A stretch of 64,000 bases of DNA from Candidatus Kerfeldbacteria bacterium (GTDB taxonomy: Bacteria > Patescibacteriota > Patescibacteriia > SBBC01 > CAIJZX01), in the NCBI GenBank assembly GCA_963731735.1, contig CAVSWO010000002.1, positions 270,106 to 334,105 on the forward strand. The letters run 5' to 3'. A model generated the notes under the pieces. The model made no database searches. It saw only the letters and a program-made list of their open reading frames with translations, and had not been told where the DNA came from. The position numbers were made by a program, and so were the translations under genes. Each line of letters begins with the position of its first letter. The first letter of the stretch is position 1. This document shows, in pieces, positions 11,305 through 55,438 of the stretch.

Positions 11305-12126
11305 TTACAGCGGACTCCGAATGCTTTGGAGTTTCGGATTCGTCACTCGTGTGTACCGCTGGGTAGTCCGAATATTGTTATGTCCGAGCAGAACCTGCAC
11401 ATAGCGGATATCCACGCCGTTTTCGAGCAGGTGCGTCGCAAAGCTGTGTCGCAAGCTATGGAACGTGGCCGGTTTTTTGATATCCGCTTTGGCCAAGGCA
11501 TGTTCAAAAACTTTCTGGGCGGTTCGGGTCGTGAGCCTTCCACCCCAATCGCTGTGAAAAATAAAGTCTCCCTTATCTTTGCCGGAGACAAAACGCTTGA
11601 GCGCATCAATAAATTTATCAGGTAAAACACTGATCCGATCTTTTCGCCCTTTCGCCTGTTTCAGATGAATCGTTTTTTCGGCAAAATCCAGGTCTTGGAC
11701 TTTGAGGTTCACGACTTCGCTCACTCGTAATCCCGCGCCGTAGGCCAAGGCCAGGAGTAATTGGTGCTTCTGATTCTTGGTCTCGTCAAGCATTCGTCCA
11801 ATCTCTTCGCGCGATAAAACTATCGGCAGGCGCTGGCCACGCTTGGCGGTCTTTATTTCAAGCCGTGCCTCGTCCCGCACCACCTGGCGATAATAAAACT
11901 TTAGAGCACTTAAGCACAGATTCCGTGTTTGTGCCGACACGCCTTGCTGTTCCAACGACGCTAAAAATCGCCTGATCGTTTCCTCATTGATTGTGTCCGC
12001 ACGATTAGACACAAAAACGAAATACTCTCTTAAGAAGTGTAGGTAGATTTTCACGGTGCGGGGACTGTAGTTGCGTATACGAAGTTCGATCCCAGCCCGC
12101 TCCAATTCTGTTGTAATATTAAACAA
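11305..12126 (-). CDS. integron-integrase-like tyrosine recombinase (short, 273 aa)
   Basis: Catalytic residues are in LRVSE, HSLRHSFATHLL, LLGH and RYTRV. The N-terminal SAM-like domain is IntI-like (YSPRTVKIYLHFLREYFVF...FYYRQVV) and the C-terminal IRSPL is IntI-like. The gene is divergently placed next to the attI and cassette array. It lacks the roughly 35-aa IntI additional domain. Confidence 0.8.
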   Translation of the reverse strand: MFNITTELERAGIELRIRNYSPRTVKIYLHFLREYFVFVSNRADTINEETIRRFLASLEQQGVSAQTRNLCLSALKFYYRQVVRDEARLEIKTAKRGQRLPIVLSREEIGRMLDETKNQKHQLLLALAYGAGLRVSEVVNLKVQDLDFAEKTIHLKQAKGRKDRISVLPDKFIDALKRFVSGKDKGDFIFHSDWGGRLTTRTAQKVFEHALAKADIKKPATFHSLRHSFATHLLENGVDIRYVQVLLGHNNIRTTQRYTRVTNPKLQSIRSPL

Positions 12127-12200
12127 AACGGTGGCCCCTTTCCGCCACCAGCACTGTCTAATCCCAAACTAGCAAAAAGTCTTAAAATGAGCAATACTGG

Positions 12201-12241
12201 GGTTATTATCCGAACCAAGTTCGCATAATAACCAGTTGTAC
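12201..12241 (+). other. attI recombination site: palindrome GGTTATTATCCGAAC-CAA-GTTCGCATAATAACC followed by crossover core GTTGTAC
   Basis: The core GTTGTAC (12235-12241) is the exact complement of the first attC inverse core GTACAAC (12781-12787). It lies 75-115 bp upstream of the intI start. The same 52-bp sequence recurs at 52136-52187. Confidence 0.7.
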
Positions 12242-12334
12242 GAAAATTTGCCTCCCTATGTTGTAAGAAAAGCTAGGTCCGAGAGTATCGCTACTCCCGG
12301 ACCCATGTTATCGGAGATGATTCCTTGGAGCGCC

Positions 12335-12638
12335 CTAGACGAGAAGCTCGCTGGCCTGATCGCGGATCGTGTCCTCGATCTGACCCTTGAACATGCCCGC
12401 CAGCCAGGGGAGCTTGCCCGTGACAGTGACTTCTCGGTCACTCACGGTCAGCTGCCCCGAGACATCGAAGCCCATGGTACTGAAGCTGAACCTGGCACCG
12501 TTGTCATGCCAGCGCCTCCTCGAGGTTGCTGACCTGGTCACCATGGTCACGCTTGACGTTCGTCAGGAGCGTGCGAACTCGCTTGAGCGCTTCGGGCTTG
12601 CCGAGCCGATGAGGAATGGACACGCGAATGTCTGGCAT
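12335..12638 (-). pseudogene. cassette 1: PHA-granule-region/polyhydroxyalkanoic acid system family protein, frameshifted, inverted relative to the array
   Basis: MPDIRVSIPHRLGKPEALKRVRTLLTNVKRDHGDQVSNLEEA then a 1-nt insertion (gcgCtggcat) shifts the frame into WHDNGARFSFSTMGFDVSGQLTV...LPWLAGMFKGQIEDTIRDQASELLV. There is a GGAGG RBS 7 nt upstream. Family recognition is from memory of PF09650-like sequences. Confidence 0.55.
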
Positions 12639-12780
12639 CGCTCTACCTCCGAAAGGAGCAGTCAATTCACCATGAATTGACAAAGCAGGATAGCATAAGG
12701 ATTAGTTCGTGTCAAGAATGTCGGGTAACATGGAGACAACCACGCTTTTCTTTTACATATGCGGCGGTCGGCAAATCATC

Positions 12781-12913
12781 GTACAACAGCGCGTAGGCGG
12801 CTCGGGTTTCTGTGGCCGCCCGAAGGCCATCCCCTAGAAACCGCTCGCCTAAGTTCGCCGGTGATGGTACGATTGTATCACCGACGAACTTCGCCTACGC
12901 GCAATCGTTGTGT
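12781..12913 (+). repeat. attC site a (133 bp; R'' GTACAAC ... R' GTTGTGT)
   Basis: Imperfect palindrome with AAC-AGCGCGTAGGCG ... CGCCTACGCGCAATC-GTT. The central region holds two internal hairpins. Confidence 0.8.
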
Positions 12914-12965
12914 GAAATTTTTCCCGGGGCTACGGTATAGAATGATGCACTAAAGACCACCGTCA

Positions 12966-13922
12966 ATGAATACAATTTTAGACAGCGTTAAAGCGGTTAT
13001 TGTTAAATCAAAACACGTTAGAATAAATAAGGAGAGCCTCAAAGAGTTTTGTTTACAATTCAATGTAAACAAGAGCGTTCACTGGATGAATGGGTCTCCT
13101 TATAATTACTCAAAACTAGATGATCTGAAAAAACTGAATTATCTTTTTGTTTTCAATTCTATCAATTTCTGCTATTGGGGTACTCCAAAATGGACTGTAG
13201 AAAACAAGGGGAACAAATACGATGGTGCCTGGGCAATGATGGCGTCTTTAGGTAAAGCAATAGATGATAACATTCCCATTTTAGATGCGAAGTATCTTTC
13301 TACTTTAAGCGGAGACATTTTATCGAGAATTTTGCAGGGAAATGTTGCAATTCCCTTGTTCAAAGAGCGTCTACAAATACTGCATGAAAATGGAAATATA
13401 CTTGCAGAAAAATATAACGGGCAATTTTCGAAGTTATTACAAAAATCAAATCAAGACGCTTTACATATTTTAGAAATAATTACCACTGAATTCCCATCAT
13501 TTGATGATAGTGCGGAGTATGAAGGCCAAAAAGTGATGTTTCACAAGAGAGCTCAATTATTAATTGCTGATGTCTATAGAGCTTTTAACGGCAATGGATT
13601 CGGTGATATAAAGAACATTAACAATCTTTCTGCATTTGCCGATTACAAAATTCCACAAATCCTTAGAAAGCTAGGAGTTTTAGAATATACACCAGAATTA
13701 TCAGCAAAAATTGATAACAAGGTTCAAATTTCCCAAGGTAGCGATGAAGAGATTGAAATTCGCTCAAACATGATTTGGGCAGTTGAATTGATGAAAGAAG
13801 AATTGAAAACAAAAACTCCAAATATTACATCAATGGAAATTGATTCATATCTTTGGCTGTTAGGGCAAGACAAATCTCCTGATGATAAACCCTATCATTT
13901 AACTGAAACTATCTTTTATTAG
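12966..13922 (+). CDS. cassette 2: DUF2419/queuosine-salvage (Qng1-like) family protein
   Basis: 318 aa and AT-rich. It carries a HKRAQLLIADV motif and overall resembles the Q-salvage family from memory. It is bounded by attC a and attC b. Confidence 0.45.
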   Translation: MNTILDSVKAVIVKSKHVRINKESLKEFCLQFNVNKSVHWMNGSPYNYSKLDDLKKLNYLFVFNSINFCYWGTPKWTVENKGNKYDGAWAMMASLGKAIDDNIPILDAKYLSTLSGDILSRILQGNVAIPLFKERLQILHENGNILAEKYNGQFSKLLQKSNQDALHILEIITTEFPSFDDSAEYEGQKVMFHKRAQLLIADVYRAFNGNGFGDIKNINNLSAFADYKIPQILRKLGVLEYTPELSAKIDNKVQISQGSDEEIEIRSNMIWAVELMKEELKTKTPNITSMEIDSYLWLLGQDKSPDDKPYHLTETIFY

Positions 13923-13941
13923 TGGCCCCGAGAAAAACTAC

Positions 13942-13998
13942 ACACAACAGCGCGTATACGATATGCTTCGCACGATCGTATACGCACAAACGTTAGGC
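13942..13998 (+). repeat. attC site b (minimal, 57 bp; R'' ACACAAC ... R' GTTAGGC)
   Basis: ACACAAC-AGCGCG-TATACGAT-[12-nt loop]-ATCGTATAC-GCACAAAC-GTTAGGC. R'' is the reverse complement of the preceding R' GTTGTGT. Confidence 0.8.
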
Positions 13999-14030
13999 GC
14001 AACTGCCTATTAATTACTAAGGAAAAAACT

Positions 14031-14267
14031 ATGGCTAAACAATACGTTTGTACTAATTGTGGTTATACAGGAGCTCCAAAAAAGATTACCAAGGGAAGCA
14101 TTCTAATCGAGATTATCCTTTGGTTATTTTTGATAGTACCTGGGCTTATCTATTCTATCTGGAGATTAACCACAAAGTACGATGCTTGTCCCAAGTGCAA
14201 GAATCCAACAATGATCCCGGTTGATTCCCCAAAGGGACAAAAGTTAGTCGAGGAACACAAACAATAG
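14031..14267 (+). CDS. cassette 3: small membrane zinc-ribbon protein (CxxC...CxxC, 78 aa)
   Basis: CTNCGY and CPKC pairs flank a TM helix. It lies between attC b and attC c. Confidence 0.5.
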   Translation: MAKQYVCTNCGYTGAPKKITKGSILIEIILWLFLIVPGLIYSIWRLTTKYDACPKCKNPTMIPVDSPKGQKLVEEHKQ

Positions 14268-14276
14268 GCAGCAGCG

Positions 14277-14612
14277 CCTAACAGCGCGTATCTGAAATTA
14301 CCACCATGGAACTAAGTGATTTCATCAAACAGAGTGTTAGGGAAGTTATGAAAGGAATGTCGGAAGCCCAAACTAACACTCATAAGTTTGGGATTAACAA
14401 TGACAACGGAAATGGCATTGAGTTTGATATTGCCGTGACATCCGAGACATCAAAAACTGGTGGCGGCAAGGTATCTATATTAAAAGTAGTCGACATTGAT
14501 GGGAACATTAAGAAATCTGAGTCTCGGATTCATAGAATAAAATTCACACTTATCCCAAGAGGAAAAAGAAACCCAACAAGTTAATAACTTCAGATACGCG
14601 CAAACGTTGTAT
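14277..14612 (+). repeat. attC site c, 336 bp, enclosing a complete ORF (R'' GCCTAAC ... R' GTTGTAT)
   Basis: The L arms GTATCTGAA (14289-14297) and TTCAGATAC (14589-14597) are exact complements. They flank the ORF 14306-14584. R'' GCCTAAC is the reverse complement of attC b R' GTTAGGC. Confidence 0.7.
14306..14584 (+). CDS. hypothetical protein (92 aa) encoded inside the attC c palindrome
   Basis: AT-rich ORF that fills the loop between the paired L arms. The stop TAA abuts the 3' arm. Confidence 0.45.
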   Translation: MELSDFIKQSVREVMKGMSEAQTNTHKFGINNDNGNGIEFDIAVTSETSKTGGGKVSILKVVDIDGNIKKSESRIHRIKFTLIPRGKRNPTS

Positions 14613-14683
14613 GAAATATACTTTTCCTTTCCGCCTGACGGCTATCGCTTTTCCTACATGAGCAAATTTGATTTCGCCTAGAC

Positions 14684-15667
14684 ATGTCCATGCTACCAAA
14701 ATTTATACTATTCGGAACTGGAAATCCTGAAATCGAGGCGTCGATTCAGCCTGTACTTGGCCTTCGAGGATGGTCAAGTCTAAGTTCGAACGAAAAAGAA
14801 ATTGTTCGCCAACAGCTTGAAAATAGTGGTTGGCTTGGTGAATATTCTAGAGAAATTTTTCACACCATAGAACACCTAAATCATAAGTATTTACGGCTAC
14901 TGCCAGGTAAGCATCTTCACGCGATTGCGCCTAAAATTGATTATGGTCGTGGGTTTGGAAGCGGTGATGAATACGAAAGGATAAAAGCTGCTCTGATTGA
15001 TTTCCAACACATATTAGTACAAGAAAGGTCCGAGTCAGTTGTGTACTATATGCTTTCTTATTTTGCGAGTTTACACATTGACAATAATTACTATCAATGG
15101 GCGAAGCAAGCAAAAACCGCGAAAGAAAGGCGAGACAATCTGCAGAAAGCATTTGAAAAATTTGGCAGGCTTGCAAATTGTTTAAATCACATATTTGAAC
15201 AATTCTCAGTGAATGTAACCCTGACGAGAAATGGTCTTGTGCCAAGACAAGACGAAAAGATTACTGAGCTAATTTATGTGCCAACTTTGCAGATTCTTGC
15301 CGATCCCAAATGGGAAAATGTTAGTAAAGATTTAGGGGACATGTTTTCAGCCTATCGGGACGAGAATTACCCTGAAACAATTACTGCTGCCCATAGAGCA
15401 GTGCAACGCTTTTTGCAAATATTAGTTGGTGAAGAGGGTAAAAATGCTAAGGGAGAAGTTGGCAAATTGTTTAGTAAGGCAAAGACGGAAGGACTAATCC
15501 CAGTCAACCGATTTACCGAACCAATTATTTCAACGATCCAGGGGTTCATCGTTTCAGAGCGTTCAACAAAAAGCACAGCGAAACCGACGGTGTCTGATGC
15601 TGGGCCCACGGACGCACTGCTCGTCATGAATGTTGTAATGGTGCTTTTACAACATTGTTTGCAGTAA
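14684..15667 (+). CDS. cassette 5: hypothetical protein (327 aa), possible Abi-like/defence-type protein
   Basis: AT-rich ORF with no firm motif. The C-terminus has a weak resemblance to Abi_C-type abortive infection proteins. Confidence 0.4.
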   Translation: MSMLPKFILFGTGNPEIEASIQPVLGLRGWSSLSSNEKEIVRQQLENSGWLGEYSREIFHTIEHLNHKYLRLLPGKHLHAIAPKIDYGRGFGSGDEYERIKAALIDFQHILVQERSESVVYYMLSYFASLHIDNNYYQWAKQAKTAKERRDNLQKAFEKFGRLANCLNHIFEQFSVNVTLTRNGLVPRQDEKITELIYVPTLQILADPKWENVSKDLGDMFSAYRDENYPETITAAHRAVQRFLQILVGEEGKNAKGEVGKLFSKAKTEGLIPVNRFTEPIISTIQGFIVSERSTKSTAKPTVSDAGPTDALLVMNVVMVLLQHCLQ

Positions 15668-15754
15668 GAATCGCAGTTGATTATCAATATCAAACATCAA
15701 ATTTGCTCATTCAAAAAAGCGTCTGATACAATCAGGAAAGGAAAAGTATAAATC

Positions 15755-16503
15755 ATACAACAGCGGATATGAGACGGAGGAAATCGGGTTTGGTTCTCTC
15801 CAACCAAAACAAAGAACCCCTGTCGCGTTCCGGAGAGGAACTGGGGTTCGTGCGGCGACACGGGGTCGCAATAAGGAGCACGGGTCTCAGTCGCTAGACC
15901 TGCACGGTCTGCAACGTGAGCCGGTGCCGCATGATCACCGCGCGGCGAGAAGGCGGGTCGGTGACACAGAAGATCACCTGGCCGTCTTCCTCGATCACGC
16001 TCTCCAGCTCCATGCCGTTGAGAGGCGCCGGGTAAGACACCCCCGCAGAGATCTGGTAGAGAATGCCAGCCGCCTTCGGCCGCTCGGGGAACGGGAACTT
16101 CCGTTCACCAACTTGCAGGAAGCGGCACTCGAACGTGACCGACCCGGAGTAGTCGGTGACCGACGGGTCATTGATGCCCTTAGGCTTGGTCACGTCGAAG
16201 GTGTGATGCTCTTCCACCACCTTCACGTCGACAGGAAGAGCGGCCCAGTTCTTGAGCGTCTCGATGATCGGGTTCATTTGGTACCTCCCCTGAGTGTGTG
16301 GTCGCGTCAGAAAGCCGTGGTCACACACCAAGAGAAGTACTCCAGTAGAATGAACAACGGAAAAGCATAGCACTGTTACGCCCAAATGTCAATACCAAAA
16401 CCAAACCCGATTTCCTCCGTCCAAATTGCTGCTTCGCCTCGGCGGTGGTAATATTGTACCGCCGGAACGAAGCAGCAACTTCTCATATCCGCAAACGTTG
16501 TCC
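15755..16503 (+). repeat. attC site h, 749 bp, enclosing a reverse-oriented ORF (R'' ATACAAC ... R' GTTGTCC)
   Basis: Arms GGATATGAG/CTCATATCC plus a second perfect 23-bp arm pair ACGGAGGAAATCGGGTTTGGTT / AACCAAACCCGATTTCCTCCGTC flank 15800-16400. R'' is the complement of attC c R' GTTGTAT. Confidence 0.7.
15894..16277 (-). CDS. hypothetical protein (about 127 aa, high GC) inside attC h, opposite orientation
   Basis: ORF starting MNPIIETLKNW with a GGGGAGG RBS 8 nt upstream. There is no recognised domain. Confidence 0.45.
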   Translation of the reverse strand: MNPIIETLKNWAALPVDVKVVEEHHTFDVTKPKGINDPSVTDYSGSVTFECRFLQVGERKFPFPERPKAAGILYQISAGVSYPAPLNGMELESVIEEDGQVIFCVTDPPSRRAVIMRHRLTLQTVQV

Positions 16504-16590
16504 GACATACATTTTTATCCCCTTTCGTTCATTTCCCGCGCGGTTCTTTTGGGAGTATAATTAACTTGTTAACAATAACTAGGATTTTTT

Positions 16591-17352
16591 ATGCATAAAC
16601 GACAAGGTATTATTTGGGCTCCGGTCCTCATCATAATTGCAACGGTTGGGGTTGCTGGAATAGCGACTTACTTTTTAATACGTGCTGGCAATACCAATCC
16701 GTCCGAAAATGGCAACACGAATGTTGCGGTGGTAAATCAGGCGAACAACAACGCTACCGCAAACCTCAACACCAACGACGCTACAAACACGAACCAGGTA
16801 GTGAATAACAATGCCAGCGCGAACACGAATACAACAGTGAATACGAACACGGTGAGCAACACCAATGCCGCAATCGATCCCTATACCGGATGGGAAACAT
16901 TATTGAATGAGCCTTACGACGTGCAGTTCAGGTACCCAAACACCTACTTTGTCTCAAGTAATCATTACGGGGTCACGGACCCAGCCAAAGCCGAAGCGTT
17001 CTTTTTCCGAAAAACATCCACCAACTACAATGGTGTACCGACGCTGGATGTTTCGGCCAACCTTACGTTACCTGCTGGCCAGACCCTCAAACAGCTAGCT
17101 GAATCCATTTATAACAGTAATAAGGATAAAGACTACGTTACAACGGATCTGAGTGAAGTAACGTATGATGGAAATGCTGGTTACGCATTCGGGCTCAAAA
17201 CAGGCTATTCCGATCCGAATGGATATCAAGCACTCGATTCAGTTGGCGGACGAGTCGTAATTCTTCAGCACAACAGCAAAATCTTTCGGTTCTTGCAAAC
17301 AGGCGCTGATGCAACACTTGAAAGCATTCTGAACAGCATAGATTTTCAATAG
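16591..17352 (+). CDS. cassette 7: secreted/membrane-anchored protein with an N/T-rich linker (253 aa)
   Basis: N-terminal TM (IIWAPVLIIIATVGVAGIATYFLI), a low-complexity N/T-rich region, then a globular domain. It is a paralog of 19154-19798. Confidence 0.6.
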   Translation: MHKRQGIIWAPVLIIIATVGVAGIATYFLIRAGNTNPSENGNTNVAVVNQANNNATANLNTNDATNTNQVVNNNASANTNTTVNTNTVSNTNAAIDPYTGWETLLNEPYDVQFRYPNTYFVSSNHYGVTDPAKAEAFFFRKTSTNYNGVPTLDVSANLTLPAGQTLKQLAESIYNSNKDKDYVTTDLSEVTYDGNAGYAFGLKTGYSDPNGYQALDSVGGRVVILQHNSKIFRFLQTGADATLESILNSIDFQ

Positions 17353-17403
17353 CTATTGAGAGCCGCGCGGGAAATTCTCTTTAAGAGATAAAAATGTACG
17401 ATC

Positions 17404-17511
17404 GGACAACAGCGCGCATACGCCATCCTTCTCCCGCTTTGGCGCTACGGCTCCGCCGATATTCTAGCGCCACGCTCATTTCGGACGGCGTATGACGCGC
17501 AAACGTTGTCC
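17404..17511 (+). repeat. attC site d (108 bp; R'' GGACAAC ... R' GTTGTCC)
   Basis: GGACAAC-AGCGCG-CATACGCC ... GGCGTATGACGCGCAAAC-GTTGTCC. R'' complements attC h R'. Confidence 0.8.
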
Positions 17512-17583
17512 GACATATATTTTTTGGAAATTTCCCGCGCGGCTCTTTGGGAGTATAATGGGAGTGTTTAATTATCACGGAAT

Positions 17584-18234
17584 ATGACAACACGCAAACG
17601 ACTGTTTTTGATCACTATCGGTACCATCTTGCTTGTTATTGTCGTTTGGGTAGCGCTTCCGTTCAATTGGGCAATCATGACGACAAGCAAGGTTACCGCA
17701 CCGGCCGGGGGCGATTTTACGCTATCTATGGTGACTCATGCGGATCAGAAAGAGTCGGACTGCATGCGAACAAAAAGCATCCGAATTGCCACTGATTCAG
17801 TGGAGGGTCAAATAATTAAAGTTTACAACACCAATTGGGATGTAATAGTTCAAGACTTGATACTTCCTACATTTGGGTCTCCAATCGAACGAATAACCCA
17901 GGTCAAACAAGAAATGTCGCAGAGAGCCGTCGGGATCATATCATACGACTCTTGGAATTATATTTCATCGATTTGGGACGGAGACACGCCCCAGCGTCTC
18001 GGCGATAGCTGGCTTGAGCCAATTACTGGTTTTACATGTTGGGTTGGCCAAGCGTCAGATCTCGCGTGGCTAAAACTTCCAAGCCGCCTAGACTCGTATT
18101 GGGAAGTATTTCCGTCTACCCCTCCCGGCACATACAAACTAACCGTGACGGATCCTTTTGGAAAACCTCATGCTCTTTCACTCACGGTCACGAAGCCAAT
18201 TTCTGATAATGACTACAAATGGTCAATAAAATAG
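17584..18234 (+). CDS. cassette 8: membrane-anchored hypothetical protein (216 aa)
   Basis: N-terminal TM followed by a globular region. There is no motif. Confidence 0.5.
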   Translation: MTTRKRLFLITIGTILLVIVVWVALPFNWAIMTTSKVTAPAGGDFTLSMVTHADQKESDCMRTKSIRIATDSVEGQIIKVYNTNWDVIVQDLILPTFGSPIERITQVKQEMSQRAVGIISYDSWNYISSIWDGDTPQRLGDSWLEPITGFTCWVGQASDLAWLKLPSRLDSYWEVFPSTPPGTYKLTVTDPFGKPHALSLTVTKPISDNDYKWSIK

Positions 18235-18261
18235 TTGCGCAGGAAGTTTTTTTGAACTACC

Positions 18262-18328
18262 ATATACGGTCGGACAACAGCGCGTATGCGATATACTACG
18301 TACAATCGCATACGCGCAAACGTTGTAC
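18262..18328 (+). repeat. attC site e (minimal, 67 bp; R'' GGACAAC ... R' GTTGTAC)
   Basis: GGACAAC-AGCGCG-TATGCGAT-[12-nt loop]-ATCGCATAC-GCGCAAAC-GTTGTAC. Confidence 0.8.
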
Positions 18329-18345
18329 GAAATGCTTTAACTAAT

Positions 18346-18915
18346 ATGAAAACAACAATTATTGTAATGTACGGTCCGCCTGGTGTTGGCAAGTTTACAA
18401 TTGGCAAACAGCTTTCCAAGAAAACAGGTTTTCGTTTCTTCAATGGACATAGACTTGCCGATGTCGTACATAGTATTTTCGAATTTGGAACGAAAGAATT
18501 TATTGAAACAACAAATTTTCTTTGGCTAAATCTTTTTTCAAAACTAGTAAAAAGCCAACCTCGGGGCCTAATTATTAGTTTTGTCTATGGTGTGCAAACC
18601 CTCGAAGGCAAAAAGGATGATCTGTTTTGCAAAAAATTTATAGCTGTAGCCAAAAGAAACGATGCCAAGATCCACTTCATTAAACTCACCTGTTCTGATG
18701 ACAGGCTCTACAGACGTGTTCAAAATAAGTCAAGAAGAAGATATGGGAAATTGACATCGGCAAGTCTTCTGAAAAAAATCCGAAATAACTACAAGGTTGA
18801 TGAAGAAATTCCTTTTGTTAAAAGTATAGAGATTGATACAACTACTTATACGCCTAAACAAACGGCGGATCGAATTATTGCCAAATTAAACCTTGCCTCT
18901 TTAAAACGTCGTTAA
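18346..18915 (+). CDS. cassette 9: P-loop NTPase / small kinase-like protein
   Basis: Walker A GPPGVGKFT near the N-terminus and an adenylate/zeta-toxin-like kinase size of about 190 aa. The start was taken after the attC e R' site. Confidence 0.55.
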   Translation: MKTTIIVMYGPPGVGKFTIGKQLSKKTGFRFFNGHRLADVVHSIFEFGTKEFIETTNFLWLNLFSKLVKSQPRGLIISFVYGVQTLEGKKDDLFCKKFIAVAKRNDAKIHFIKLTCSDDRLYRRVQNKSRRRYGKLTSASLLKKIRNNYKVDEEIPFVKSIEIDTTTYTPKQTADRIIAKLNLASLKRR

Positions 18916-18922
18916 AGCACTC

Positions 18923-19061
18923 CGTACAACAGCGCGTAACCGACGCGGTTTCTGGCGACCGGCGGAGCCGTTCGCTTCCGAAACCGCTACATTTGCTGGT
19001 GTTGTCCGCTAAAGCGGAGTATTCTAACACCAGCAACGTCGGTTACGCGCAAACGTTGTCC
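18923..19061 (+). repeat. attC site f (139 bp; R'' GTACAAC ... R' GTTGTCC)
   Basis: A conserved frame. The central module CGGTTTCTGG...CGAAACCGCT plus TTGCTGGTGTT...AACACCAGCAA is shared with attC g. Confidence 0.8.
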
Positions 19062-19153
19062 GACATACATATTTATCTTATTGAATTGGTTTCCCGCGCG
19101 GCTCCTTCCAGAGTATAATAAGATTGTTTAAAATACTTAATTAAGTATATTTT

Positions 19154-19798
19154 ATGAAATACCGACAAGGTATCGTTTGGGCACCGGTGCTCATCATTAT
19201 CGGTGCAGTTGTGGTAGCAGGTTTTACAACCTTTTTCTTGATTCAGGCCAACCAATCCGACAATGAAAACGTGAATGTTGCGCTGGCAAATCAGGCGAAT
19301 AGCAATCTCAGCGTTAACACAAATACGAATGTTTCGACTGTCCCAACTGGATGGAAGGTGTTTACAAATGATTATGCAAAGTATTCTTTTCAGTACCCAA
19401 CAACACTTATAATCAGTGATTGCAGTAATAAATTAGGAAGTTACGTATTAGCTCCAGGGGGATCGTGCGAAAATGAAACATTTGGGCCAGGTTTTTCAGT
19501 TTTACTTCATTCAGAGCCAACATACAATGAAGATGAGACATACGAAGAAATTAAAAAGTTAATTACAAATCCGCAAACAAGCTCCGTGCCAATTGATGGT
19601 ATGCTTGGTCGTCGATTGCAAGGTGTTCAAAAAATAGAGGACCCAGTTTTTCCGGACCAAAAAGAGAAATACTCCGACTACGTTTTTGTTCAAGCCAGGG
19701 GCAACTTCTATACCATTGCAAGTGTTTCTTTGACATCGGAACCATTTCGGTATACTGACTTTGAGAATTTCCTTGCGACCTTTAAATTCACGAATTAG
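19154..19798 (+). CDS. cassette 10: secreted protein, paralog of the cassette 7 protein
   Basis: MKYRQGIVWAPVLIIIGAVVVAGFTTFFLIQAN parallels MHKRQGIIWAPVLIIIATVGVAGIATYFLIRAG. It shares the same N-rich linker. Confidence 0.6.
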   Translation: MKYRQGIVWAPVLIIIGAVVVAGFTTFFLIQANQSDNENVNVALANQANSNLSVNTNTNVSTVPTGWKVFTNDYAKYSFQYPTTLIISDCSNKLGSYVLAPGGSCENETFGPGFSVLLHSEPTYNEDETYEEIKKLITNPQTSSVPIDGMLGRRLQGVQKIEDPVFPDQKEKYSDYVFVQARGNFYTIASVSLTSEPFRYTDFENFLATFKFTN

Positions 19799-19905
19799 CT
19801 GTAAAGATAATTATCTAGTTTTTCGAAGATGGATTTACTTCAACTCTCTGTTTAGCTGCGAGTGAAATTCTCTTTTGAAGATAAAATGTACGATCGGACA
19901 ACAGC

Positions 19906-20067
19906 GCGTAGAGGAAATCTTTGGTTTTAGCAAGATTTCTGGTAATATCAATGCATTAGTAGCTCTTTTTGAGCCTATCGGCTTACCGCAAATCGGCTGT
20001 CCGCCCCGTGGTGAGCGAGTGTACCACAGTGCGGCCAGCCGACTTCCTCTACGCGCAAACGTTAGCT
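19906..20067 (+). repeat. attC site i (162 bp; R'' GGACAAC ... R' GTTAGCT)
   Basis: L arms GTAGAGGAA/TTCCTCTAC. The central module is nearly identical to that of attC j. Confidence 0.8.
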
Positions 20068-20183
20068 GACATATTCCTTTTCTTTTCCAGCTAACGCCGG
20101 TGCGGGTAAAAAATCTTTCAAATTTCTCTTTTAAGGTCAACGCTTCTTGCAATAATCTGGTTTATTCAATAACATAATAATAT

Positions 20184-20624
20184 ATGTCAATCGAGCACGG
20201 CGGCCCATCCCCTGAGGAGATGGGGTTAAGTCAAGAGACAACTGAATCAAAACTTCCACCCGAAGCATTGGATGCGATGACAGATTATTGGGAGGAACAA
20301 CAAACAAAGTTTATAGGACAGATGGCCGACGGATCCGGCAGAAATTTTGATGTCGATATATCGCGGACAAATGCCTATTTAGAAAAGATTGACCAGGCAG
20401 ATTATTTTACACCCGCCGAAGTTAAAAAGACCGTCGATGGCAAAGAAGTAACTTCTCCGGAACGTTCAGTATTTGATTTTTTTAAGAAAAAGCTCGCGGG
20501 CTTAGAATACGCCATTGAACAGGGAGATGACCTTAAGACTATTCAGGAATACGAGAAACAGGCAAAGCAGATGAGAATGGCAGTTGAGGCGCTGGAGAAA
20601 ATCCGACCCAAAGACAGTGAGTAG
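20184..20624 (+). CDS. cassette 11a: hypothetical acidic protein (146 aa)
   Basis: ORF with a plausible composition. No motif was recognised. Confidence 0.45.
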   Translation: MSIEHGGPSPEEMGLSQETTESKLPPEALDAMTDYWEEQQTKFIGQMADGSGRNFDVDISRTNAYLEKIDQADYFTPAEVKKTVDGKEVTSPERSVFDFFKKKLAGLEYAIEQGDDLKTIQEYEKQAKQMRMAVEALEKIRPKDSE

Positions 20625-20835
20625 CTTTATAGCAAAATGGCCGCCAGTGATAACTATTGCCTCTTTTGTTGGCTTGCTTATTCTGATGGCTGGCATCTTT
20701 GCTTGGGCAACAGGTACCAATTTGGGGTCGGTCACGAACGCAGTGGTTACATTGCTATCAATTGTTGGTCTCATAGTTCTTTTGGCGCTAACATTTGTTT
20801 CAAAAAACCCTAAAAAGCCAGACCAGAAGCAGTAG
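20617..20835 (+). CDS. cassette 11b: small two-TM membrane protein (start uncertain, GTG/TTG)
   Basis: Two hydrophobic helices (ITIASFVGLLILMAGIFAWA and AVVTLLSIVGLIVLLALTFV) and a lysine-rich tail. It overlaps the stop of 11a. Confidence 0.35.
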   Translation: MSSFIAKWPPVITIASFVGLLILMAGIFAWATGTNLGSVTNAVVTLLSIVGLIVLLALTFVSKNPKKPDQKQ

Positions 20836-20897
20836 AAAAATTCGAAAGTTTTTTACACGCCTTCTCTTAACAGAGAAGAAAAGAAAGGGAATACGAT

Positions 20898-21070
20898 CAG
20901 CTAACAGCGCGTAGAGGAAATATTTAGTTTCAGCAAGATTTCTGATAATATCAATATACTCGAAACTCTTTTGGAGCCTAATGACTTGCCACAAATCGGC
21001 TGTCCGCCCGGTGGTGAGCGAGTGTACCACAGTGCGGTCAGCCGACTTCCTCTACGCGCGAACGTTGTAC
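20898..21070 (+). repeat. attC site j (173 bp; R'' AGCTAAC ... R' GTTGTAC)
   Basis: R'' is the exact complement of attC i R' GTTAGCT. It shares a roughly 120-nt central module with attC i. Confidence 0.8.
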
Positions 21071-21093
21071 GAAATATAGTCATCCCCCCTACT

Positions 21094-21717
21094 TTGACCA
21101 ATTCAACAAAAATAAAGGCAATAGTATTTGATTTTGGCGATGTGATTTGCTTTTGGGATGATCAGATCTGGAGCGATGAGGAGTTGCGATTACGTGGAAT
21201 CAATGGAGAGGAGCTGAGGAACCTGATGTATGAATATATGCGTCATGGTGGCGAGGGAAAATATCATAGCTTCCTTGACTACTATGATACTCATCAGCAC
21301 GGTTCTAACATCGAAAGAAAAGTCATTGCTGGCTTGTACGAGGACCGGGAACAAACAGGTAAACTTGATCCCAAGATGGTCAATCTCATTACAAAACTAA
21401 AGTCTCGATACAAAATTGGGTTGCTTTCAAACTATACCAAAGGACTTGAAGACTTCTTGATAAACCGATTCAAGATTCACCACCTTTTTGACGCTGTAGT
21501 CAGCTCATACACGATTCGGATTAGAAAGCCCGCGATTGATGCGTATCATTATGTCGCAAAAGAATTATCAGAGCAGGTTGAGCATTGTCTTTTCGTCGAT
21601 GATAAGCAAAAAAACGTTGACGTAGCACTTGAGGCAGGCATGGAGGCAATCCTCTTTTCAGGTTTCGATGACCTTGTGAAAGAAATGGAGCAACAATTTG
21701 GTATCAGCATTTCCTAA
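21094..21717 (+). CDS. cassette 12: HAD-superfamily hydrolase
   Basis: Motif I FDFGDV, motif II LSNYTKG, a conserved K in IRKP and motif IV FVDDKQKNVD. There is no ATG after the attC, so a TTG start is assumed. Confidence 0.6.
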   Translation: MTNSTKIKAIVFDFGDVICFWDDQIWSDEELRLRGINGEELRNLMYEYMRHGGEGKYHSFLDYYDTHQHGSNIERKVIAGLYEDREQTGKLDPKMVNLITKLKSRYKIGLLSNYTKGLEDFLINRFKIHHLFDAVVSSYTIRIRKPAIDAYHYVAKELSEQVEHCLFVDDKQKNVDVALEAGMEAILFSGFDDLVKEMEQQFGISIS

Positions 21718-21759
21718 CTACAGCGCTTTCAGGAGGAGTTCGGGGGGATGACTAAACTC

Positions 21760-21902
21760 CGTACAACAGCGCGTAACCGCCGCGGTTTCTGGCGACCTGG
21801 CAAAGCCGCTCGCTTTCGAAACCGCTACATTTGCTGGTGTTTTCCGCTGGCGCGGAGTAGTGATAACACCAGCAACGTCGTATACGCGCAAACGTTAGGT
21901 GA
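21760..21902 (+). repeat. attC site g (143 bp; R'' GTACAAC ... R' GTTAGGT)
   Basis: R'' complements attC j R' GTTGTAC. The central module is homologous to that of attC f. Confidence 0.8.
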
Positions 21903-22017
21903 AATTTTCGAAACGAGATTTTTTTATTCGGAGGTTTTGAATTTGGCACTAAAAAGAGGGGCCCGCGGATACAGTATCCTTGGGCCCCGAATTTCGACTG
22001 ACTCACAGAGATTGCAG

Positions 22018-22329
22018 TTACTTCATGGGGTATTCACGAAGCAGCTGCTGATGAAGGAGATATGCAAGCTGCTGACGCCCCATCGATCCTGATGCTCTGG
22101 GCACTGCGAGGACGGGATGGTTGGAGCCACGTTTCAGCTTTGGATGCTCCAGCCCCCAGTACAACCCCAGAGCCGCGGGCCCCTTGACCTGCTTGATCCA
22201 CTTGTCGAGATGATGCTCGGCAACCCTCCGTGCTACCTCATCCGGTACCACAGGTTCTTCCCAGGTCTCACAGCACCGTTCCACGATGTCGTCGATGAGA
22301 AGCGGTCGAACCTTTTTCTCGTCTATCAT
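22018..22329 (-). CDS. cassette 13: hypothetical protein (103 aa), reverse orientation
   Basis: Only a protein-like ORF between attC g and the terminal attC remnant. Confidence 0.3.
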   Translation of the reverse strand: MIDEKKVRPLLIDDIVERCCETWEEPVVPDEVARRVAEHHLDKWIKQVKGPAALGLYWGLEHPKLKRGSNHPVLAVPRASGSMGRQQLAYLLHQQLLREYPMK

Positions 22330-22480
22330 GGCGACACCTCCCAGAAGTCCGTAGCGAAAAGAATGAACTGGTACAGATCTGTCAGAACAAAGAATAATTA
22401 GTCTATTTTCACAAATCTGTCAAGGGGAGCATGAACAAATTCAAAACCCTTTTACTTATAGGGCTCGTTTCGAAAAAATC

Positions 22481-22500
22481 ACCTAACAGCGCGTATCTGG
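22481..22500 (+). repeat. terminal attC remnant (5' half only: ACCTAAC-AGCGCG-TATCTGG)
   Basis: R'' ACCTAAC is the exact complement of attC g R' GTTAGGT. No matching 3' arm was found before nrnA. Confidence 0.6.
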
Positions 22501-28009: not shown

Positions 28010-28219
28010 AGATTGCCTCTCAACGCCGCGCCCTCTGGCAGGGCGCGGCTTGAATATCCAAAACACCTCGTGGTGACCCGCGAAGCTTGTCCGCCATATT
28101 TTGCGTTCGACGCAAAGGGGGGCGGGGACTCGTCAGGCGGCCTGATCCCCGCCTGCCTTAGCGGTGCGGCGGACAGGCGGCTTCGCCGGAAACCTTTCTA
28201 CGTAAGAGGCAGTTGCTCT

Positions 28220-28589
28220 GCCTGGGCAGCGCCGACCTGCCACTGGCAGCTCGGCGAACATTCGGACGGCGTTCCACTTGTCCTCACTTCTGCCCGTCTC
28301 GCTTCGCTCGACCCATTTCGCTAGCGGCCGCTAGCTCAAAACACCTCGTGGTGACCCGCGAAGGACTCGAACCTTCAACCCACTGCTTAAGAGGCAGTTG
28401 CTCTGCCTGGGCAGCGCCGACCTGCCACTGGCAGCTCGGCGAACATTCGGACGGCGTTCCACTTGTCCTCACTTCTGCCCGTCTCGCTTCGCTCGACCCA
28501 TTTCGCTAGCGGCCGCTAGCTCAAAACACCTCGTGGTGACCCGCGAAGGACTCGAACCTTCAACCCACTGCTTAAGAGGCAGTTGCTCT
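28220..28589. repeat. two tandem 185-bp repeat units (plus a degraded third copy at 28060-28219), each containing the 3' two-thirds of tRNA-Lys and a 16-bp perfect palindrome GCTAGCGGCCGCTAGC
   Basis: The sequence 28220-28404 is repeated at 28405-28589. Each unit carries tggtgacccgcgaaggactcgaaccttcaacccactgcttaagaggcagttgctct, which is tRNA-Lys from the CCA end through the D-stem. Confidence 0.75.
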
Positions 28590-52060: not shown

Positions 52061-52135
52061 ACGTAACGCGACGAAGCGCCGCTATGGCGTATCCCGGCGG
52101 CAGAAATTCCAGGGCTGGTAAACCCGAGAAATATA

Positions 52136-52187
52136 CGCAATACTGGGGTTATTATCCGAACCAAGTTCGCATAATAACCAGTTGTAC
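52136..52187 (+). other. second copy of the attI sequence (identical about 52 bp, including the palindrome and the GTTGTAC core)
   Basis: Exact repeat of 12191-12242. It is followed by a cassette cluster whose first attC inverse core is GTACAAC. Confidence 0.7.
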
Positions 52188-52244
52188 GAAATTGACTTTT
52201 TCCTTTAAACTGGAAATTAACTACTTAGTATATTCAACAAATCT

Positions 52245-53305: not shown

Positions 53306-53405
53306 GTACAACAGCGCGTATACGCCATCCTTCTCTCGCTTAGGCGGTAATGATATTATACCGCCACGCTCGTTCCGGACGGCGTATGACGCGCGAACGT
53401 TAAGT
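53306..53405 (+). repeat. attC site k (100 bp; R'' GTACAAC ... R' GTTAAGT)
   Basis: GTACAAC-AGCGCG-TATACGCC ... GGCGTATGACGCGCGAAC-GTT. The central module is about 85% identical to attC d in array 1. Confidence 0.75.
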
Positions 53406-53467
53406 GAAATTGAGGATTTGTCCAAAAAATATATAAGGGCAAAAAATTATTTAATAACTAGATAAAC

Positions 53468-54234
53468 ATGAAAGACCATTACGATAGTTTTTATAAGAAA
53501 AGTTCAGAAAAATTTAAAAAATACGAGTTTCATGGACATGGCAAATTGGTTACTGGGGAAAAACCAAATTTTTTTGAGTATCTTAAAAAGTTTGGAAATA
53601 AAAATTTTAAAGTATTAGATTTAGGATGTGGCTCTGGCGAACTAACACTCAAACTTTCTCCGTTTTTTAAGGAAATTGTTGGCATAGACCCTTTTGATGA
53701 TTATATAAAATCGGCAGAAAATTTGAAAAGGACAATCAAAGTTGGAAATGTCATTTTTAAGGTAGCAGATGGAAAAAATTTACCTTTTGAAATACCGGCC
53801 GCCATTTTGATATTGTTTCAGCTCTAGAGGACCGCTTTCTGCCAACATTGATTTTATTAGAGAAAGTTTTCGTGTTTTAAAAAAGGGGGTGATAATTTAT
53901 CCAAGAAACTATTGGCGAAAAGGATAAAATTGAACTCAAAAAAATTTTTGGAAGAGGGCAAAATTATCCCAATAGTGAAAAAAACAAAAATTCGTAATCA
54001 GTAAAAGAATTATTAGCACAATCCGGAATGAAACTCGTTGAATCAAAATATTTTAAATTTTATCAAGCTTATTCATCAATCAACGATGTTGTAGTAATTC
54101 TTGAAAGAGCCCCCATAATTCCAGATTTTGATAAAACAAAAGACAAAGCACATCTTGAAGAAATTGATAGGAAACTTAATGGTAGTGGTATAAAATTAAG
54201 TAGTCACAGATTATTTTGGGTAGCTGAAAAATAA
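53468..54234 (+). pseudogene. class I SAM-dependent methyltransferase cassette gene disrupted by frameshifts
   Basis: The first frame gives VLDLGCGSGELT (motif I). The protein continues in other frames (…FRVLKKGG…, then MKLVESKYF…) across 53828-54234. Confidence 0.5.
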
Positions 54235-54317
54235 TTTTTTGCCCGATTTTAATAATGAAGAACAAATCCTCAAACTCAAGCCACGCTGCGCTCTCACTCC
54301 CTTCGTTCGTTCGGGGC

Positions 54318-54417
54318 GTATAACAAGGGATATACGGTTCAGCCCTCGGCTCGGGCTTCACCCAAATTTTTCTTCCACTTCGTTCCAGAAAAACTTCGTA
54401 TATCCCTAACGTTATCG
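54318..54417 (+). repeat. attC-like site l (100 bp; variant with AAGGGA in place of AGCGCG; R'' GTATAAC ... R' GTTATCG)
   Basis: Arms GGGATATACG/CGTATATCCC in an AAC...GTT frame. Its R'' does not complement the preceding R' GTTAAGT. Confidence 0.55.
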
Positions 54418-54480
54418 AAATGTTGCTATTGACGAATTAGTACCTTCGGTTCTAAGATCGCGTATTCGATCTTTCACAAC

Positions 54481-54809
54481 GAAATATTCTTAGGGGGCGT
54501 ACTAAAAAGGAGGTCATCGATGTTTCGTAGCTTTAAGGCCCTCATGGTAGGTACGTGGACTTGTGCACTTTCTTCTTGAATTTGGGGGTCTGCTGGAGTC
54601 CTGGGCTTAAGTTCCAAGCCAGTCAACACCTCGGCGATTCTCACTGGTACTTGTCTTGTGATCCTCGTCATTGTGGTTGTCATCATTGACTATTTGTAAC
54701 CGCCAGACGACATGGTGTGCAAAATGCAACCCATCAAGACCCCTGACCCCCTTCGTCCTTTTTCCGAGGAGATGGTAACGACATCATTCTCGCCCCCTAA
54801 GAATATTTT
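54481..54809 (+). repeat. cassette content flanked by 19-bp inverted repeats GAAATATTCTTAGGGGGCG / CGCCCCCTAAGAATATTT(T)C, with a strong-RBS 19-aa ORF (MFRSFKALMVGTWTCALSS) inside
   Basis: Near-perfect terminal IRs. AAAGGAGG lies 7 nt before the ATG at 54520. An antisense ORF 54474-54686 overlaps it. Confidence 0.4.
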
Positions 54810-54838
54810 CTCTATAAGAAACGCTGCGCAACACATCT

Positions 54839-54955
54839 GACAACAGCGCGTATACGAAATTGCGCGGGTGTCCGCTTCCCGCCTCCGTTTTACTTCGGCG
54901 GGCAAGCGCGGTAGTATACACCCGCGCAATGCGTATGACGCGCAAACGTTAGACG
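54839..54955 (+). repeat. attC site m (117 bp; R'' TGACAAC ... R' GTTAGAC)
   Basis: ACAAC-AGCGCG-TATACG ... CGTATGACGCGCAAAC-GTTAGAC. Confidence 0.75.
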
Positions 54956-54962
54956 CCATAAT

Positions 54963-55313
54963 ATGAAAAGAACAACTCTAACTTCTGTCATAGTTCTTAC
55001 ACTGATAATTTTGTTTTTGGCCGTTCCAAAACCGTACTCACTCTCAACAAACGTAAAGTCGTGCGATAAGAAAAATTCAGCTGAACAAAATGTAAATTCT
55101 GCACCAACGGATACCAATACATTTTTTAGGGATTATATACCTACACCATCTCTCATTTATGTGGATGAAAGCTCGGGGTGGTGTGCCGGGATAATTTATC
55201 CGACAAATAAGGAAAGAGAGTTAGATGCTTTTAATAACAGTTGCAACATGGTAACAAAAGGTTGGGATTGTTTAGGAATTAAATTTTCTAAAAAAGAATC
55301 AATTGCTTTATAG
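54963..55313 (+). CDS. cassette ORF: secreted hypothetical protein (116 aa)
   Basis: Signal-peptide-like N-terminus and AT-rich composition. It lies between attC m and attC o. Confidence 0.5.
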   Translation: MKRTTLTSVIVLTLIILFLAVPKPYSLSTNVKSCDKKNSAEQNVNSAPTDTNTFFRDYIPTPSLIYVDESSGWCAGIIYPTNKERELDAFNNSCNMVTKGWDCLGIKFSKKESIAL

Positions 55314-55328
55314 CTTACATATTACGAC

Positions 55329-55401
55329 GCCTAACAGCGCGTATACGCCCCGACCTTCGCCAAGGCTACGGCGGGCAGCATATGACGCGCAAACGTTAGA
55401 C
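55329..55401 (+). repeat. attC site o (73 bp; R'' GCCTAAC ... R' GTTAGAC)
   Basis: GCCTAAC-AGCGCG-TATACGCC ... GCATATGACGCGCAAAC-GTTAGAC. Its R'' differs by 1 nt from the complement of attC m R'. Confidence 0.75.
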
Positions 55402-55438
55402 AAAAAACTCCCCCGAGCGCCTAAGCGTTCGGGGGATT
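55402..55438 (-). terminator. rho-independent terminator for the minus-strand gene 55421-55909
   Basis: On the minus strand: CCCCCGAACGCTTAGGCGCTCGGGGGAG followed by TTTTTT. Confidence 0.6.

Follow-up and report, generated by a model that had tools for sequence, protein, structure and literature searches.

Introduction

The attC sites described for integrons are 57–141 bp long and non-coding (PMC3053210), and the sites termed ‘long’ in the literature measure 115–132 bp (PMC3607928). Here, a stretch of 64,000 nucleotides (nt) from a Candidatus Kerfeldbacteria bacterium was analysed (assembly GCA_963731735.1, contig CAVSWO010000002.1, positions 270,106–334,105 of the forward strand; hereafter the window). 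It carries an integron-like cassette array in which two sites, c and h, measure 337 and 749 bp and enclose a complete open reading frame (ORF). We consider it likely that c and h are two single attC-type sites belonging to a chromosomal integron-like array, each with its gene in the apical loop of a branch hairpin. The initial annotation of the window had already proposed single sites; its length of 749 bp for h was reproduced, and its 336 bp for c fell 1 bp short.

Both sites share many features with canonical attC sites such as the Vibrio cholerae repeat (VCR) and attC-aadA7. These are the AAC...GTT ends, the imperfect R''/L'' and L'/R' inverted repeats, an unpaired asymmetric spacer, a variable terminal structure, an array located beside a divergent tyrosine recombinase, an R'' in each site n+1 that is complementary to the R' of site n and, in the short sites, a bottom strand that is more stable than the top strand. 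Unlike canonical sites, c and h are 337 and 749 bp long with a whole gene inside, their L arms have no extrahelical base and their partner enzyme has no IntI-specific domain.

ORF-carrying foreign DNA also interrupts attC sites in the case of IS1111-attC elements and group IIC-attC introns. Such elements bring a gene for a transposase or a reverse transcriptase, and their ends and target positions are defined. In the present sites, by contrast, there is no such enzyme, the genes are unrelated, the place is always an apical loop and the arms of site c covary. A further comparison is offered by the reverse-oriented toxin–antitoxin cassettes of sedentary chromosomal integrons, which have their own promoters. 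The unit in site h is likewise self-transcribed against the array, but it is located inside the site and not in a cassette body, and its only gene has no recognisable domain of a toxin or an antitoxin.

No description of genes in attC loops, or of integrons in Patescibacteria, was found in the literature; coverage was incomplete, and this is absence of evidence only. The sites in this dataset are attC-type sites with genes in their apical loops, which are conserved and covarying in one family, freshly made in another and recurrent in related arrays.

Site c and its gene

An attC-type site whose hairpin loop holds a gene is called a giant site in the following. Twelve giant sites were examined across the window and the loci fetched from other metagenomes and metagenome-assembled genomes (MAGs), which are numbered L001–L043. 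In the minimum-energy fold, the L arms were paired in all 12.

Site c covers positions 14276–14612 on the plus strand. It starts with R'' (GCCTAAC, 14276–14282), a single A and L'' (14284–14294, extended to 14300). The gene is followed by the 3' arm (14585–14601), the spacer AAAC and R' (GTTGTAT, 14606–14612). In a repeat search, the arms 14284–14300 and 14585–14601 (17 nt, 94% complementary, 284 nt apart) were the sole long inverted pair spanning the ORF. L'' and L' are complementary at 11 of 11 positions, in c as in h.

For site c, the initial annotation had claimed that the arms pair exclusively with each other. The repeat search and the folding bore this out for c as well as h, with no partner nearby for either arm. 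Each of the two sites, folded in isolation, had its distal arms paired. The possibility that the arms belong to two separate degenerate attC sites, raised in the initial annotation as a point that could overturn it, therefore failed: there were no separate partners, the distal arms fold together, and the arms co-vary in seven diverged copies of site c.

ORF c (14306–14584, plus strand) encodes a protein of 92 amino acids and occupies the apical loop of the branch-2 hairpin. Its surroundings differ in detail from what had been reported. The arm GTATCTGAA starts at 14288 instead of 14289, and the ATG is 9 nt past the end of GTATCTGAA, not 16 nt after the 5' arm. The stem does abut the stop codon as reported; TTCAGATAC itself is separated from it by 4 nt, which are also part of the stem.

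The protein matched the Pfam family Trypco2 (PF19631) with 38.8 bits (cut-off 24.2), its residues 1–84 aligning to profile positions 1–78 of 78. The Trypco2 domain was first defined beside trypsin-like peptidases in conflict systems (PMC7159879). Twelve homologues of ORF c were found. Among the Trypco2 copies, the ratio of non-synonymous to synonymous substitution rates (dN/dS) was 0.03–0.16, and synonymous sites were saturated. Judging from these ratios, ORF c is a real gene under strong purifying selection.

An 11-nt stretch within ORF c (GAAGTTATGAA, 14342–14352) is 91% complementary to the region of the stop codon (14581–14591). This pair may offer an alternative closing stem, stem 2 of the window copy apparently having been shortened by deletions.

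Copies of the Trypco2-bearing site in other arrays

Eight diverged Trypco2 copies (61–90% amino acid identity) were found in other metagenomic arrays between the same kind of arms. The copies in L002-5, L006, L011, L034, L013/L035 and L043 each stand between an R''-L'' half and an L'-R' half, and the genes neighbouring the site differ from array to array. This fits the earlier suggestion that the ORF is mobilised together with its recombination site. The layout of the family is R''-A-L'' (11 nt), a small hairpin 1, a linker, the 5' arm of stem 2, the gene from ATG to stop, the 3' arm of stem 2 and L'-4 nt-R'. In L006, L011, L002, L013 and L043, stem 2 is exact over 14–20 nt; it starts immediately upstream of the ATG, and its other side takes in the last codons and the stop codon.

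Covariation was tested on an arms-only alignment of seven Trypco2-bearing sites, with 500 shuffles and slid controls. In this alignment 95.4% of the cells were paired, compared with 17–44% in the slid controls. Seven pairs had changed on both sides in a compensatory manner, and none of the 500 shuffles reached the covariation score. At position 3 of stem 2, four of the seven copies have A.C on the sense strand, which corresponds to G.T on the bottom strand. Because synonymous sites are saturated at a dN/dS of 0.03–0.16, the non-coding arms are more conserved than neutral sites. The comparison indicates that the non-coding arms of the Trypco2 sites are held by selection.

No such arms were present around the distant Trypco2 genes of other phyla. 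In L013 (1860–1961), there is an ‘empty’ site of 102 bp that has identical L arms but holds no gene. Site c is an old, inherited arrangement and differs in its history from site h.

Two other readings of the family were considered. Stem 2 (GTTACAA...TTGTAAC) was examined as the former R'/R'' pair of an inner cassette, and the site was examined as a circular permutation. Both readings were rejected, as the neighbouring sequences supply no inner L boxes.

Site h and its inserted unit

Site h covers positions 15755–16503 on the plus strand. It consists of R'' (ATACAAC), a single A, L'' (15763–15773), the branch-1 stem (15773–15795 and 16399–16421), the branch-2 hairpin (16423–16481), L' (16482–16492), the spacer AAAC and R' (GTTGTCC, 16497–16503). 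The arms 15763–15774 and 16481–16492 (12 nt) are 100% complementary, as are the 23-nt arms 15773–15795 and 16399–16421. This agrees with the initial annotation, which had described the arms and a second perfect 23-bp pair around a reverse-oriented ORF with its own ribosome-binding site.

The apex of branch 1 holds an inserted transcription unit of 590 bp on the minus strand (15809–16398). It comprises a –35 box (TTGACA, 16387–16392), a –10 box (TATGCT, 16364–16369) at a spacing of 17 nt, a leader hairpin (16285–16337), the motif GGAGG, the ORF and a terminator (15814–15849) followed by a T-tract. ORF h (15894–16277, minus strand) encodes 127 amino acids; the protein is predicted to be all-beta. 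The G+C content of the unit is 59%, and that of the third codon positions of ORF h (GC3) is 84%, compared with 40% in the body of the cassette. The insert is compositionally foreign.

A direct repeat, AACCAAA, marks the edges of the insert. The first copy (15802–15808, plus strand) is at the same time, on the minus strand, the last part of the T-tract behind the terminator of the unit; with the second copy (16399–16405, plus strand), the 3' arm of the branch-1 stem begins. Removing positions 15809–16405 left a canonical two-branch site of 152 bp with a 22-bp stem and a 6-nt loop, like the neighbouring sites. The folding energies of the emptied site were –63.0 kcal/mol for the bottom strand and –58.6 kcal/mol for the top strand. 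Site h is a recent one-off insertion. The GC-rich unit, complete from promoter to terminator, would have been joined into the 6-nt loop of the 22-bp stem at the 7-nt microhomology, and we infer an illegitimate joining at the apex of the hairpin.

Only one true homologue of ORF h was found among 1.8 billion representatives (46% amino acid identity, in L012); the other hits were weak and belonged to long repetitive proteins. The window and L012 are homologous over precisely the segment from the –35 box through the T-tract of the terminator, with nothing beyond, and the promoter, leader hairpin, Shine–Dalgarno sequence and terminator are conserved. The initial annotation had left room for the embedded ORFs being non-coding or not conserved. 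This is contradicted by the Trypco2 assignment and the low dN/dS of ORF c and, for ORF h, by the 46% homologue with its conserved promoter, leader and terminator. L012 is 1027 bp long, too short to tell whether its copy is inside an attC site, and no convincing half-sites were seen in it. Among the fetched loci, the arms of site h occurred only in L001, which is from the same strain.

The leader hairpin (16285–16337, minus strand; L012: 375–410) shows a compensatory change, GTGTG/CACAC versus GTTTG/CAAAC, on either side of a GACCA motif that is repeated. A role as an operator or as an RNA element is possible.

ORF h had no match in Pfam or NCBIfam, and its AlphaFold (AF2) model, with a predicted local distance difference test (pLDDT) score of 68.8, had no fold match in the PDB at E≤0.001. 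PADLOC gave no match for the proteins of 78, 92, 327, 127 and 103 amino acids. Exact look-ups of ORF h and of P0022 returned no contig, and scans of viral contigs for the h arm and for relatives of ORF h were empty.

Further gene-bearing sites

A scan of the fetched arrays revealed five further gene-bearing sites in related arrays, with mutually unrelated embedded proteins. They are located at L034: 3695–4270 (154 amino acids), L034: 6950–7371 (117 amino acids, with the stop codon within L'), L006: 1576–1996 (92 amino acids), L041: 2982–3566 (155 amino acids) and L041: 3929–4662. In the last of these, both loops are filled, with 74 amino acids encoded in branch 1 and 116 in branch 2; the 3' arm of hairpin 1, the linker and the 5' arm of hairpin 2 stand between its two genes.

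The arm type CGG[G/A]CTAGCCG occurs in four of the five sites, the A variant being that of L034: 3695–4270. One backbone, with the arms CGGGCTAGCCG, carries four different inserts.

L034 (CAYPXF010000002.1) is labelled as an uncultured gammaproteobacterial MAG and has a G+C content of 35%. Its array is of the same attC type and is located beside an ars operon, and no recombinase was seen within 8 kb. Either L034 is mis-binned or the array type crosses phyla.

Array architecture

The window contains infB and rbfA, then the recombinase gene on the minus strand (11305–12126) and then the cassettes on the plus strand. The G+C content is ~54% in the chromosome and ~40% in the cassettes, and the nearest named homologues are from Patescibacteria and Parcubacteria. 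The cassette array (12781–21903, plus strand) comprises 10 attC-type sites of 57–749 bp with the consensus xxxxAAC-A-GCGCGTA...TACGCGC-AAAC-GTTxxxx.

Array sites were scanned for on both strands of the 64-kb window by requiring AAC...GTT and an 11/11 complementary arm pair at the right offsets. Arm pairs matching 11/11 at the right spacing to AAC and GTT were confined to two arrays, the second being a cluster at 53306–55404 in which three sites were counted. All 13 window sites, including c and h, have the AAC and GTT triplets. The degenerate positions of RYYYAAC/GTTRRRY fit in part (e.g. GTTGTAT, ATACAAC). The spacer asymmetry is constant, with 1 nt (A) on the 5' side versus 4 nt (AAAC) on the 3' side. 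A 1-nt bulge in the L box is present in only 4 of the 13 sites; the L arms of c and h are perfectly complementary.

The short sites span 57–172 bp. Minimal hairpin sites are present as previously reported, with the correction that both are 57 bp long and located at 13942–13998 and 18272–18328. Most short sites fold into a three-way junction that has two branch hairpins. In 10 of 11 short sites, the bottom strand was the more stable of the two strands.

At the cassette junctions, R'' is the reverse complement of the R' of the preceding site. This rule holds for all 10 array sites, so that c and h obey it with their neighbours as had been claimed, and it is also kept across the giant sites in L034, L041, L006 and L013.

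Cassette boundaries

The same cassette, encoding a protein of 327 amino acids, is located directly 3' of two different giant sites, namely site c and L041: 3929–4662. The two copies are 85% identical, and their homology starts at the 5' side exactly at AAACGTTGTAT. It ends right after R'' (ATACAACAGCG; window 15668–15773 versus L041: 5727–5865). Downstream of the gene, L041 has a site of 63 bp, and the window has the 749-bp site h. The break after ATACAACAGCG suggests an exchange at or near R''. As the L041 copy has a 63-bp site in the place of site h, a gene together with its R'' and the interior of a site can apparently be re-associated. The gene belongs to a family with precomputed PF14355 matches.

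L001 represents a 99.7%-identical strain from another sample. There, a queuosine-salvage cassette stands behind a different site (L' CGGCTAGCCCG), and the homology of L001: 1–70 to window positions 12781–12913 begins at the GTTGTGT crossover. With a different site upstream of this cassette in L001, the arrays have been recently rearranged and are dynamic. The breakpoints are evidence that the crossover points of the giant sites are in use; whether a site was already giant at the time of use is beyond this evidence.

Recombinase at the head of the array

The tyrosine recombinase (11305–12126, minus strand; 273 amino acids) is XerA/IntI-like, is transcribed divergently from the cassette array and has no IntI-specific extra domain. 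It matched Pfam Phage_integrase with an E-value of 1.1e-46 and passed the NCBIfam model XerA_Arch (NF040815) with 226.4 bits at a cut-off of 220. It failed the model of the integron integrase (TIGR02249), which it matched in two stretches with 219 bits at a cut-off of 265.

In the comparison with PDB entries, the enzyme matched XerA of P. abyssi (4A8E, 1.3e-44) and VchIntIA (2A3V, 5.7e-44) about equally well, and in this respect it is like both XerA and IntI recombinases. Query residues 191–202 span residues 193–246 of the 2A3V chain, meaning that ~40 residues are missing at the IntI-specific insert. The lack of this insert distinguishes the enzyme from IntI, and its position at the head of a cassette array distinguishes it from Xer proteins. 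With a Xer/IntI-like enzyme at its head from which the IntI-specific domain is absent, the array can be called integron-like but not a proven integron. For the same reason, standard integron finders would call a cluster of attC sites without an integrase.

Other features of the window

An attI-like region was read from the sequence at 12184–12245 on the plus strand. It contains GTTGTAC (12235–12241), which matches the R'' of the first attC site (GTACAAC). An attI-like sequence of 62 nt ending in GTTGTAC recurs with 95% identity at 52130–52191, where it heads the second small array. No recombinase gene is located beside this array, and its sites are found at 53306–53408, 54318–54417, 54838–54957 and 55329–55404.

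The main array terminates in a truncated 5' half-site (22481–22499, ACCTAAC-A-GCGCGTATCTG) whose L'' is identical to that of site c. No 3' partner of this half-site was found downstream. A chromosomal gene of the DHH family starts after it at 22609.

The first and the last cassette (12238–12913 and 21898–22480) contain GC-rich genes that face against the array. The first holds a PHA_gran_rgn gene that is split across two frames (12335–12550 and 12504–12683), and the last holds an ORF for 103 amino acids (22018–22329) with no family match. Like the insert of site h, these genes look compositionally foreign to the cassettes with 40% G+C.

Outside the arrays, a 185-bp unit is present in two tandem copies with 99% identity (28198–28567). 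A scan of 11–24 kb with Rfam gave nothing relevant.

Discussion

We propose that sites of this lineage form a three-way junction on one plan: R''-A-L'' (11 nt), branch hairpin 1, a short linker, branch hairpin 2 (base AARTT/AACTT) and L'-4 nt-R'. The giant sites would keep every conserved part of this plan and hold a gene in the apical loop of one branch hairpin. In the case of site c, the Trypco2 gene in the branch-2 loop would have been passed on together with its arms across at least eight diverged arrays, in which the cassette gene in front of it differs every time. When the bottom strand becomes single-stranded over 0.3–0.8 kb, as lagging-strand template or during DNA uptake, the distal arms could pair and set R''/L'' beside L'/R', and the Xer/IntI-like recombinase could exchange strands at G|TT. 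The embedded gene would then move as a part of the site, inseparable from its cassette. A likely side effect is that rarer folding makes the cassette more stable. Present-day competence for recombination and the strand used are presumed, as is the way in which the genes were inserted.

Several points weigh against this reading. That giant sites recombine as such is an inference. In model integrons under replicative conditions, recombination dropped by as much as four logs (10,000-fold) when the variable terminal structure was long (PMC8946536). No such loss occurred when the site arrived single-stranded (PMC8946536), and this tolerance could be compatible with a function of giant sites in organisms that rely on DNA uptake. 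The top and bottom strands of the giant sites fold about equally well. The L arms of c and h have no extrahelical base of the kind seen in some short sites. As the recombinase also lacks the domain that reads such bases, the chemistry may differ from that of model integrons. Two relatives have lost the arms, namely the Trypco2 copy of L040, a decayed relic, and that of L007, which is located in a ribosomal-protein operon. Finally, site h is known from a single instance and is silent on conservation.

Giant sites might also have arisen by fusion of cassettes, in which the 5' half of one attC site was joined to the 3' half of the next and the inner halves were deleted, leaving in between an ordinary cassette gene deprived of its own boundaries. 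The L arms are identical at several array sites, which means that halves of two sites could pair; the segment 19896–21070 was scored as a formal ‘site’ by the array-site scan for this reason, and the lone 5' half-site 22481–22499 shares the L'' of site c. We consider a fusion very unlikely, as it needs two precise deletions in the loop of the same branch hairpin each time, and no case shows damage to the other branch hairpin, the linker or the junction motifs. The repeat search gave no remnants of inner half-sites, and the genes are found in branch 1, in branch 2 or in both. In site h, the insert is compositionally foreign and flanked by a 7-nt repeat, and taking it out yields a perfect site of 152 bp. 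Were fusion nonetheless the origin, the covariation would still show that the arms were retained as partners afterwards. Another conceivable source of the embedded segments is mobile elements aimed at attC hairpins, such as IS1111-attC, group IIC-attC introns or IS200/IS605-type elements; elements inserting specifically into attC sites have reportedly been described by Post and Hall in 2009 and by Leon and Roy in 2009. The 7-nt direct repeat of h could then be a target duplication, and the backbone with the arms CGGGCTAGCCG holds four different inserts. This origin appears highly improbable, since no domain of a transposase, a reverse transcriptase or an HUH enzyme was found in the embedded ORFs (Pfam, NCBIfam), ORF h has no matching fold, the embedded genes are mutually unrelated and the inserts have no terminal inverted repeats. 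As regards a transposon with terminal inverted repeats or a miniature inverted-repeat transposable element, the h insert shows the 7-nt direct repeat and no terminal inverted repeats; the 23-nt inverted repeat around it belongs to the attC stem. Moreover, the homology with L012 stops at the promoter and the terminator and not at element ends, and one of the AACCAAA copies is the terminator T-tract itself.

A third explanation concerns function. The arms could be kept for a role in RNA or in regulation, with the giant sites recombinationally dead and the long stem in the transcript pairing the leader and ribosome-binding region with the 3' end of the gene, which would affect translation, processing or stability. 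The exact stem 2 that reaches the last codons and the stop codon in five loci would suit such a role, and so would the poor performance of long terminal structures as recombination substrates in model systems (PMC8946536). We give this explanation a small chance. The covarying part includes the L arms, which are common to all short sites and have a fixed spacing to AAC and GTT; the A.C at position 3 of stem 2 on the sense strand is a G.T pair on the bottom strand in four of seven copies; and the cassette boundaries fall exactly at the R' of the giant sites. An invertible switch is conceivable as well, in which the recombinase acts on the inverted half-sites as duplex and flips the enclosed gene relative to an array promoter. 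The halves are indeed inverted repeats 0.3–0.7 kb apart, the enzyme is Xer-like and ORF h is opposite to the array. Yet the eight Trypco2 copies and five other embedded genes all face in the direction of the array, and ORF h needs no switch because it has its own promoter. A switch is therefore extremely unlikely.

If c and h are single attC-type sites with a gene in the loop, the apical loops may be, in these arrays of small genomes, the place where cassettes are loaded with new genes, being prone to breaks and tolerant of sequence, and a gene-bearing site might then spread like a lineage-specific attC site. We regard this extension as tentative and, on balance, rather unlikely. Loop loading would explain both the CGGGCTAGCCG arm type with four different genes and the Trypco2 site behind eight genes.

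The giant sites have practical consequences for annotation. IntegronFinder has a default limit of ~200 bp for the length of attC sites. With such a limit, detection tools would miss giant sites, misplace the cassette boundaries and misassign the genes.

For the biology of integrons, the findings mean that a variable terminal structure under selection can reach a length of hundreds of bases, that a gene can hitchhike on the recombination site itself and that cassettes can gain genes without a second attC site. This bears on the old question of the origin of cassettes; loop loading, if true, would be a visible route of cassette growth or genesis. Moreover, the array suggests that candidate-phyla bacteria have an integron-like system whose recombinase does without the IntI domain.

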